Below are positions 19,945-20,201 of a stretch of 64,000 nt of DNA, piece by piece. Made by a program: the position numbers and the translations under genes. Under the pieces are notes generated by a model. That model searched no databases. It worked only from the letters and a program-made list of their open reading frames with translations, and was not told the origin of the DNA. The stretch comes from an uncultured Fodinibius sp. GTDB taxonomy: Bacteria > Bacteroidota > Rhodothermia > Balneolales > Balneolaceae. The number at the start of each line of letters is the position of its first letter. Positions within the stretch are counted from its first letter, which is position 1. The stretch spans positions 599,665 to 663,664 of the forward strand of contig CAJXMJ010000002.1 in assembly GCA_913056455.1 (NCBI GenBank), written 5' to 3'.

Positions 19945-20201
19945 GAGGGACTTTGAGCCCGTGCGCGGGATTGGGACATCGGTTGGCTGGCCGGTTAAAG
20001 ATCTGGGATAGTGGCATTGTGAATGCTACAGTCTCTGTCCATTGATGGAGAATAAGCCCGAAAAGGGGTTTGGATGCCGGCAGGTAATCCGAACGTGATC
20101 AACGATACCGGTTGCCAGCGATAGGTTTGAACCTAGGATTTATTGAAATGCTGTAGCTAGATGTAGGTGAGGACTGTCTGCTTGACATTTTCCTTTTTAA
20201 A
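19945..20201 (+). ncRNA. Candidate bridge/seek RNA region in the non-coding right end of the IS (hypothesis)
   Basis: About 257 nt are non-coding after the transposase versus about 69 nt before it. Local hairpins are visible, e.g. GTTTGGAT (20068-20075)/ATCCGAAC (20087-20094). Confidence 0.3.

Follow-up and report, generated by a model that had tools for sequence, protein, structure and literature searches.

A probable bridge (seek) RNA gene in an IS1111-type insertion sequence occupying an integron attC site of an uncultured Fodinibius

Our analysis of a 64,000-nt stretch of the genome of an uncultured Fodinibius sp. (Balneolaceae; contig CAJXMJ010000002.1, positions 599,665 to 663,664; hereafter the window) indicates that positions 19920-20119 on the + strand encode, with high probability, the bridge (seek) RNA with which an IS1111-type insertion sequence (IS) finds its targets, integron attC sites. 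RNAs of this kind, discovered only recently, program DNA recombination. The first-pass annotation, made from the letters of the window alone, had proposed an RNA of this kind 3' of the recombinase gene, at 19945-20201. The proposal itself has gained a covarying structure and four segments that match the target flanks and the element ends, but its interval has to be moved: the RNA starts at about 19920, within the transposase open reading frame (ORF), its structured core ends at about 20119, and one of its guides lies over the stop codon.

The element belongs to the IS110 family, has the IS1111-type layout and lies within an integron attC site. Its ORF matches the Pfam families DEDD_Tnp_IS110 (PF01548, 2e-15) and Transposase_20 (PF02371, 1e-24), and an intact relative of 353 aa (locus L002) matches the NCBIfam model NF033542, 'IS110 family RNA-guided transposase', with 225 bits (cut-off 140); the nearest solved structures are those of the ISCro4 and IS621 transposases. 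Two tblastn searches of a plasmid collection, aimed at ISKpn4, ISPst6 and ISEc11, returned only genes named 'IS110 family transposase' with 25-38% identity, and the protein is about 30% identical to the nearest IS110-family genes there. Two features of the IS1111 subgroup are also present. The longer non-coding side lies 3' of the transposase gene, since 69 nt separate the left end at 18821 from the ATG at 18890, compared with 257 nt from the conserved stop codon (19942-19944) to 20201 and about 260 nt of non-coding right end overall; the counts of about 69 and 257 nt in the first-pass annotation (18821-18890; 19944-20201) were thus correct. Two pairs of subterminal inverted repeats, AAAAAGGAA/TTCCTTTTT (9 bp, 100%) and GTCCTCAC/GTGAGGAC, begin 8 nt inside the left end and finish 5-7 nt inside the right end, as in the IS1111 subgroup, where repeats of 7-17 bp leave a few bases outside. 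The transposases of intact relatives have 343-353 aa (330-350 aa in the subgroup), and the ORF reads RLVPGAKDSG where the IS1111 motif is GL-P----S(t)G.

Where the IS ends was determined from an alignment of 11 full copies, with empty attC sites for comparison. The left junction (18811-18828) reads AATGCGCA-GG-ATCTTTCC and the right junction (20198-20212) reads TAAAGG-GG-TTAGGCC, and empty sites read AATGCGCG-GG-TTAGG, with a single copy of the core; the right end lies at 20203-20205, according to which copy of the shared GG is assigned to the element. Target and donor have this 2-nt core in common, GG here and TG in sister clades: the main clade has GG at both junctions, most of L009, L011b, L033-L036, L038 and L041 have TG at both, and in L037 the left junction has TG but the right one GG.

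The target is recognizable as an integron attC array. The left flank is part of a repeat of about 130 bp, of which the window holds two further copies (~17815-17940 and ~18196-18330) and which occurs in most related loci as well. One end of the repeat is marked by a TAAC box and the opposite end by a box of the GTTAGGC or GTTATAC type; its inverted arms are imperfect, and small ORFs lie between the copies. A profile made from three of them recovered 36 copies in this genome and the related loci, all 36 on the + strand when the loci were read in the orientation of the IS and the genome's own contigs as given. About 600 bp from the copy with the highest score (contig C1, 597368-597508) there is a gene for an integron integrase (TIGR02249, 443 bits, cut-off 265), whose transcription is directed away from the array. 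Uninterrupted copies in the same genome read ...AATGCGCGGGTTAG..., and filled copies in relatives have the same left flank. The IS is inserted directly next to the attC R box (GTTAGGC) in a specific orientation, and the attC halves are AATGCGCA-GG on the left and GG-TTAGGCC on the right.

The region 3' of the transposase gene has a conserved fold. Fifteen copies can be aligned well in their 3' regions, where compensatory changes are obvious, and the RNAalifold consensus of these regions consists of a long closing stem and four hairpins. In a model of 40 base pairs, 96.3% of the cells are paired across the 15 sequences, as opposed to 25-51% when partners are slid, and eight pairs have changed on both sides. 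For the same 40 pairs in 40 distinct sequences from Balneolaceae genomes, 92.9% of cells are paired and 26 of the 40 pairs are compensated (slid-partner controls overall 24-56%), figures that lean toward structure because the alignment was fitted to the model. We assign the RNA to the + strand, since conserved G-U pairs in the helix P1 fit that strand alone. A minimum free energy fold of the single sequence 19916-20126 recovers the consensus helices, those of the target domain included.

We propose from sequence and covariation that the RNA has two pseudo-symmetric domains (Table 1). The order in the target-binding domain is stem, right target guide (RTG), hairpin, left target guide (LTG) and stem; in the donor-binding domain it is stem P1, right donor guide (RDG), hairpins P3 and P4 and left donor guide (LDG), followed by P6 and the return strand of P1 (20107-20119). 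Pairs of the target-binding domain are paired in 94.7% of cells (20-47% when slid), and eight are compensated. Its basal stem P-T scores 210 of 225 pairs for cognate strands, against a mean of 185 for shuffled ones and with 0 of 20000 shuffles as high, and occurs in relatives in at least eight compensated versions, such as CCAGCCUAU/AUAGGCUGG, UCAGCCUAU/AUAGGCUGA, CCAGCCCAU/AUGGGCUGG, ACAACCUAU/AUAGGUUGU and, in L041, CAUUCGG/CCGAAUG. The 5' strand of P-T, CCAACCGAU, also encodes part of the C-terminal tail of the transposase, and the 5' boundary of the RNA is 25 nt inside the ORF. An initial RNAalifold pairing of 19982-19987 with the 3' strand of P1 was dropped, as P-T compensates the A-C breaks of L009 and L011b. 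The other helices change in a similar manner: P-T2 is compensated in L034 (GCCUG/UAGGAC), P0 in relatives has GGG/CCC swapped for GAG/CUC or GGAG/CUCC around a loop of variable length, and P1 is fully compensated in L036 (UGGUUCGGCU/AGCCGACCA). The hairpin that had been noticed at first sight, GTTTGGAT (20068-20075) with ATCCGAAC (20087-20094), has the right coordinates, and its inner GGAU/AUCC and GCC/GGU pairs are P6, but the guides lie outside the P6 loop. A match between GCAGG in that loop and the left flank is due to chance, as had been suspected, because the A of the flank GCGCAGG is specific to the window copy (relatives read GCGCGGG, GCGCTGG or GCGCCGG), while the loop is conserved and does not covary.

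Four segments of the RNA correspond to the junctions of the element, namely to the left and right target (LT, RT) and the left and right donor (LD, RD). These segments became visible in diverged copies, because the flanks of those copies differ. For each guide, cognate junctions were compared with shuffled ones in 11-14 lineages and 20000 shuffles. The LTG covaries with the left flank: L004 has a T in both and L012 an A in both, and guide and flank together read ACGCUUG in L033 and L037, AACCUG in L034 and CCGCUG in L035. Its cognate sum is 71, compared with 56.2 +/- 3.1 for shuffled junctions (0/20000 as high). The LDG follows the right junction in the same way, with UAACGUGUU in L033, UAAGGUGUC in L034 and L035, AAAGAUGUU in L036-L039, UAAUGGUGUU in L041 and AAAGGUGUU in L009, L011b and L044, and reaches a cognate sum of 98 (shuffled 76.9 +/- 3.6; 0/20000). 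For the RTG, relatives with GG-TTAGGC read GCCUAACC and those with TG-TTATGC read GCAUAACA, while L034 has CCUGAC, including a UGA stop, for GTCAG and L035 has UUCCGA for TCGGAA; the cognate sum is 91 (shuffled 80.8 +/- 3.2), and 28 of 20000 shuffles were as high. The RDG retains 7-8 nt of complementarity in all copies, and the sole change in its support is AUAUAUC in L035, where RD is ATATTT. Its cognate sum of 72 (shuffled 70.5 +/- 1.6; 7337/20000 as high) comes from a test that is powerless here because RD, the left IS end, hardly varies. Both left guides also run 2 nt past the core, and these extensions match recombined junctions only: AU, from RD, in the LTG, and UU, or UC in L034 and L035, from RT, in the LDG. 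The first-pass annotation had staked its proposal on a structure shared by aligned homologous copies and on loops complementary to target and donor; the structure is conserved in 15 and then in 40 distinct copies, and four segments match, with LTG, LDG and RTG covarying with the flanks.

Table 1. Features of the insertion sequence, its RNA and its junctions; positions are those of the window
Feature	Start	End	Strand	Sequence and remarks
Insertion sequence	18821	20205	+	1385 bp with the right-hand core copy counted; IS1111-type layout
LT, left target flank, and core	18811	18820	+	AATGCGCA 18811-18818, then core GG 18819-18820; right arm of attC-like repeat
RD, right donor segment	18821	18828	+	ATCTTTCC, first bases of the left IS end; kept in all copies but L034, L035 (ATATTTAC)
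Left subterminal inverted repeat	18829	18846	+	AAAAAGGAA 18829-18837 and GTCCTCAC 18839-18846; inverted repeats I9, I1
DEDD transposase gene	18890	19944	+	Frameshifted; final 25 nt also part of the RNA
Bridge/seek RNA, structured core (probable)	19920	20119	+	About 200 nt; target-binding domain 19920-19986, donor-binding multiloop domain 19987-20119
P-T, 5' strand	19920	19928	+	CCAACCGAU; basal stem of target-binding domain; partner 19978-19986 AUCGGUUGG; perfect 9-bp inverted repeat I16
RTG, right target guide	19939	19946	+	GCCUAAGA; GCCUAA antisense to RT TTAGGC 20206-20211; contains transposase stop UAA 19942-19944
P0 hairpin	19947	19960	+	GGGAC UUU GAGCCC, between RTG and LTG; covariation
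LTG, left target guide	19962	19971	+	UGCGCGGGAU; same sense as LT + core + first 2 nt of RD (18813-18822, TGCGCAGGAT)
P-T2, 3' strand, and P-T, 3' strand	19972	19986	+	UGGGAC (19972-19977) and AUCGGUUGG; P-T2 partner GCCCG 19931-19935
P1, 5' strand	19987	19995	+	CUGGCCGGU; basal stem of donor-binding domain; partner 20107-20119 ACCGGUUGCCAGC; exact register ambiguous
RDG, right donor guide	19997	20004	+	AAAGAUCU; antisense to core + RD GGATCTTT 18819-18826; G-U wobble at 18819
Hairpins P3 and P4	20011	20051	+	P3 20011-20029, P4 20032-20051, in multiloop; compensatory changes in all 8 P4 pairs and closing pairs of P3
LDG, left donor guide	20062	20070	+	AAAGGGGUU; same sense as LD end + core + first 2 nt of RT (20199-20207, AAAGGGGTT); exact
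P6 hairpin	20072	20090	+	GGAUGCC GGCA GGU A AUCC; U-A to C-G compensation in 8 sequences
Right subterminal inverted repeat	20167	20198	+	GTGAGGAC 20167-20174 and TTCCTTTTT 20190-20198, with TTGACA inside
LD, core and RT	20198	20212	+	LD TAAAGG 20198-20203, core GG 20204-20205, RT TTAGGCC 20206-20212; RT is the attC GTTRRRY-type box

How such an RNA might work can be sketched from these correspondences, if transcription, protein binding and catalysis are as in the homologous systems IS621, ISEc11 and ISKpn4. In the target domain, closed by P-T, the RTG on the 5' side of the internal loop would pair with the top strand of the core and TTAGGC, and the LTG on the 3' side with the bottom strand of AATGCGCG and the core, with P0 between the two guides. 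In the donor multiloop, closed by P1, the RDG would pair with the top strand of the core and ATCTTT at the left IS end, and the LDG with the bottom strand of TAAAGG and the core at the right IS end. The RNA would thereby hold the junction of the circularized IS (LD-GG-RD) and the attC site (LT-GG-RT) together, and the DEDD recombinase would swap strands at the common 2-nt core (GG; TG in sister clades), which would place the IS in one orientation directly next to the GTTAGGC box of attC. The nucleotides by which LTG and LDG run 2 nt beyond the core into the recombined product may be handshake positions. The RNA itself may be cut from the transposase transcript, as has been proposed for ISEc11 (PMC11187229). 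It is also tempting to speculate that a promoter formed at the circle junction could take its -35 box from the conserved, outward-facing TTGACA at 20182-20187, of which diverged relatives retain TTGAC.

Several points weigh against this interpretation or limit it. The RTG of the window pairs over 6 nt only, and the LTG of the window has one mismatch to its own flank. The relatives are not independent of each other, so that about 5-6 independent changes stand behind each guide instead of 11-14. The RDG is the weakest assignment, with almost no covariation; moreover, GATC is palindromic, and LD is in part an inverted repeat of RD. AAGCCC at 20054-20059 could pair with the LDG (helix P5) or, through its CCC (20057-20059), with GGG at 20005-20007, a choice on which covariation is uninformative, and no helix is less well conserved than P5, in which one pair is broken in 14 of 38 cells. 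An Rfam 15 search of 18500-20600 at permissive settings gave only chance matches (E >= 2), in a database whose coverage of IS1111 by a model is uncertain; in this covariance-model comparison, of the kind suggested in the first-pass annotation, no Rfam 15 family matched the RNA at E <= 10. As to expression, there is one hint, in that contigs 85-95% identical to 19893-20092 are present in three RNA libraries from two studies, but they come from relatives, are possibly derived from DNA and cannot show the ends of an RNA, and transcription is not proven by them; the gaps over the transposase body in those libraries carry no weight. A scan for sigma-70 promoters found nothing above chance in or before the RNA, in a host that may use other promoter types. 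Finally, the transposase gene is broken or deleted in most copies, that of the window included.

The last point raises the question of whether the RNA gene in the window is still in use. The family could be RNA-guided while this particular copy is a fossil, immobile and without a working complex, and on balance we lean toward this view. An intact transposase gene, as expected of the IS110 family, is missing from the window copy: by alignment and tblastn, 7 nt are absent between 19800 and 19801 relative to 11 full-length copies, and because of this deletion the frame from 18890 ends at 19852 and not at 19944. One DNA run is identical to the window over 18700-19984, deletion included, and may be the source sample. 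The element is present as a single copy in its own 3.28-Mb genome, which leaves no second copy to supply the protein. Decay of the gene is widespread in the family, with a full-length ORF in just 3 of 15 translated copies and a few more near-full-length matches among later loci (L034-L036, L041, L026). Against a fossil, the RNA region is intact, with all helices and guides, and the catalytic DEDD and SG parts are upstream of the frameshift, so that only the last ~50 residues are lost. Because the transposase is frameshifted and the genome has no sister copy, the window copy is most likely immobile now, and we regard it as a decayed, probably dead element. Note that this concerns activity, not identity, and is compatible with a bridge (seek) RNA gene.

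Two other readings would deny the RNA a guiding role. The 3' region could be a structured element of the mRNA, such as a stabilizer, a terminator or a translational regulator, with matches to the flanks that are coincidental or due to common descent. The single-sequence fold is only modestly better than that of shuffles (z ~ -1.9 to -2.0), the 5' part overlaps the ORF and could affect the termination of translation, and no bridge RNA model of Rfam matched. However, three segments vary in step with target flanks outside the element and with its far ends, which a cis-acting element does not predict, and the protein family has been found experimentally to be RNA-guided (PMC11208160, PMC11187229); we give this reading very little credence. 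It is just as improbable that the matches act as DNA, the internal junction copies being transposase binding sites or remnants of earlier recombination: LTG and LDG share the sense of the integrated junctions, which would be expected of duplicated DNA sites, and deletion derivatives such as L047 resemble recombination between a flank and an internal segment, but the other two segments are antisense, the segments sit in helices with RNA-type covariation including conserved G-U pairs, and internal protein sites leave the covariation with the target outside the IS unexplained.

In layout, a bridge (seek) RNA gene also agrees with described systems. In IS1111 seekRNAs, the guide complementary to the top strand is 5' of the guide complementary to the bottom strand (Siddiquee et al. 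2024, PMC11187229), and in many IS1111 elements the donor-binding nucleotides are in a multiloop (Durrant et al. 2024, PMC11208160). The element shares both features with the IS1111 bridge/seek RNAs of ISEc11, ISPa11 and ISKpn4 (PMC11187229, PMC11208160), together with a DEDD transposase, a short left and a long right end, subterminal inverted repeats and an RNA at the 3' end on the transposase strand. It differs from them in its Balneolaceae host and in that its target domain begins inside the ORF with a guide over the stop codon, whereas those papers map the RNAs downstream of the transposase gene. ISKpn4, ISPst6 and ISPa25 form the IS1111-attC group, according to the passages of PMC11187229 that cite Tetu and Holmes 2008 and Post and Hall 2009. 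Like that group, the element targets one end of an integron attC in a fixed orientation and encodes a guide RNA; it differs in attC family and host phylum, and in inserting at GCGCG-GG|TTAGGC, while ISKpn4 and ISPst6 insert about 6 nt farther from the GTTAG box, at TTGAA*CGAATTGTTAG (PMC13604230).

In IS621, left guides address the bottom strand and right guides the top strand, and each loop consists of stem, guide, stem-loop and guide (Hiraizumi et al. 2024, PMC11208158). Two pseudo-symmetric loops, this strand rule, a common 2-nt core and extra positions that fit the recombined product only (the handshake) are likenesses between the IS621 bridge RNA (PMC11208160, PMC11208158) and the RNA described here. 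In contrast, the RNA here is at the right end of the element and that of IS621 at the left, the guides of each loop come in the opposite order, GG or TG takes the place of CT as the core, the donor domain is a multiloop, and the 2 nt that match the product belong to the left guides (LTG, LDG), not to the right guides as in IS621.

A guide over the stop codon, a basal stem inside the ORF and 2-nt extensions of LTG and LDG that fit recombined junctions only may be new features. We make the tentative and still doubtful suggestion that the target half is formed in part from the last 25 nt of the ORF, such that the UAA in the RTG would read the TTA of attC, and a UGA in a sister element would stand beside TCA. 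If this arrangement is not already general or described in IS1111, ribosomes at the end of the ORF would contend with the folding guide domain for one set of nucleotides, and the target repertoire would be limited to sequences whose complement holds an in-frame stop codon. The extensions of the left guides are the mirror image of the IS621 handshake, and would suggest that strands are exchanged in the reverse order or that the guides are adapted to excision.

To our knowledge, mechanistic work has dealt almost entirely with IS621, ISCro4 and a few proteobacterial members of IS1111, and we know of no representative of this clade's phylum among the bridge/seek RNA systems studied. The clade, whose target is the attC site of chromosomal integrons, has diversified naturally into six or more guide variants; their four guides, core and helices can be read from the sequence, and it could offer a ready guide code for an IS1111-type recombinase, with L002, L004, L036 and L041 as candidate intact elements. 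It also provides a concrete case of an IS that colonizes cassette arrays next to the attC box to which the integron integrase binds. For the annotation of the window, the non-coding 3' end of the IS is explained and the element is recognized as a decayed copy.

The distribution of the clade is narrow. Scanning species-representative genomes for a peptide pattern yielded 20 loci, nearly all from Balneolaceae or Fodinibius. A covariance model (R1) built from the 15-copy alignment of 3' regions had 52 matches, down to 26 bits, in 23 of 151 Balneolaceae genomes and, at the sensitivity of this model, did not match any of 128 genomes from other families of the phylum; as far as searched, the clade is confined to Balneolaceae. 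Many of the R1 matches are internally deleted or transposase-less derivatives that retain the RNA and the right end, among them L031, L033, L038 and L046-L051, and one genome (G089) has 18 R1 matches in two regions (contigs C4 and C6). This suggests non-autonomous elements that accumulate in cassette arrays. In one complete genome, the RNA of L036 (G095:C1:1177020-1177188) is accompanied by two identical RNA matches (C1:3132883 and C1:3136983) and adjoins a transposase gene that matches over 351 residues in one piece; from its sequence, L036 is the foremost candidate for a member of the family that is still active.

Further observations concern the RNA. The motif AAGCCCG (once GAGCCCG) occurs three times in it (19929-19935, 19955-19960 and 20054-20060), each copy 1-3 nt upstream of a guide (RTG, LTG and LDG), and may be a repeated module for protein recognition or helix formation. 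Some copies have extra hairpins of 30-70 nt in the P6 or P5 loops (L004 1756-1963, L015 2796-3004, L010 3537-3744 and L046; in L004 and L015 the additional hairpin is inserted in the P6 loop), and so these loops tolerate big insertions. In a sub-lineage made up of L007/L030, L031 and L050, and similarly in L049 and L042, the segment from AAGCCC to the LDG is replaced by a longer perfect hairpin, UUCCGACAG/CUGUCGGAA; this variant has no recognizable left donor guide, yet is found at several sites in two genomes. A search for the right target guide 3' of P1 (20120-20140) and in the P3, P4 and P6 loops showed no correspondence to the flanks; the guide was found instead at the stop codon.

With regard to the surroundings of the element, the full integrase gene of this genome (C1:598106-599047, locus L052) adjoins an array of the same attC-like repeats at C1:586437-597508, and the array in the window, on contig C2, has no integrase nearby and looks like a separate, integrase-less cassette cluster. 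Between two of its attC-like repeats, a gene pair for a Doc-type toxin and an AbrB-type antitoxin (17126-17724) forms one unit, which is typical cargo of chromosomal integrons.

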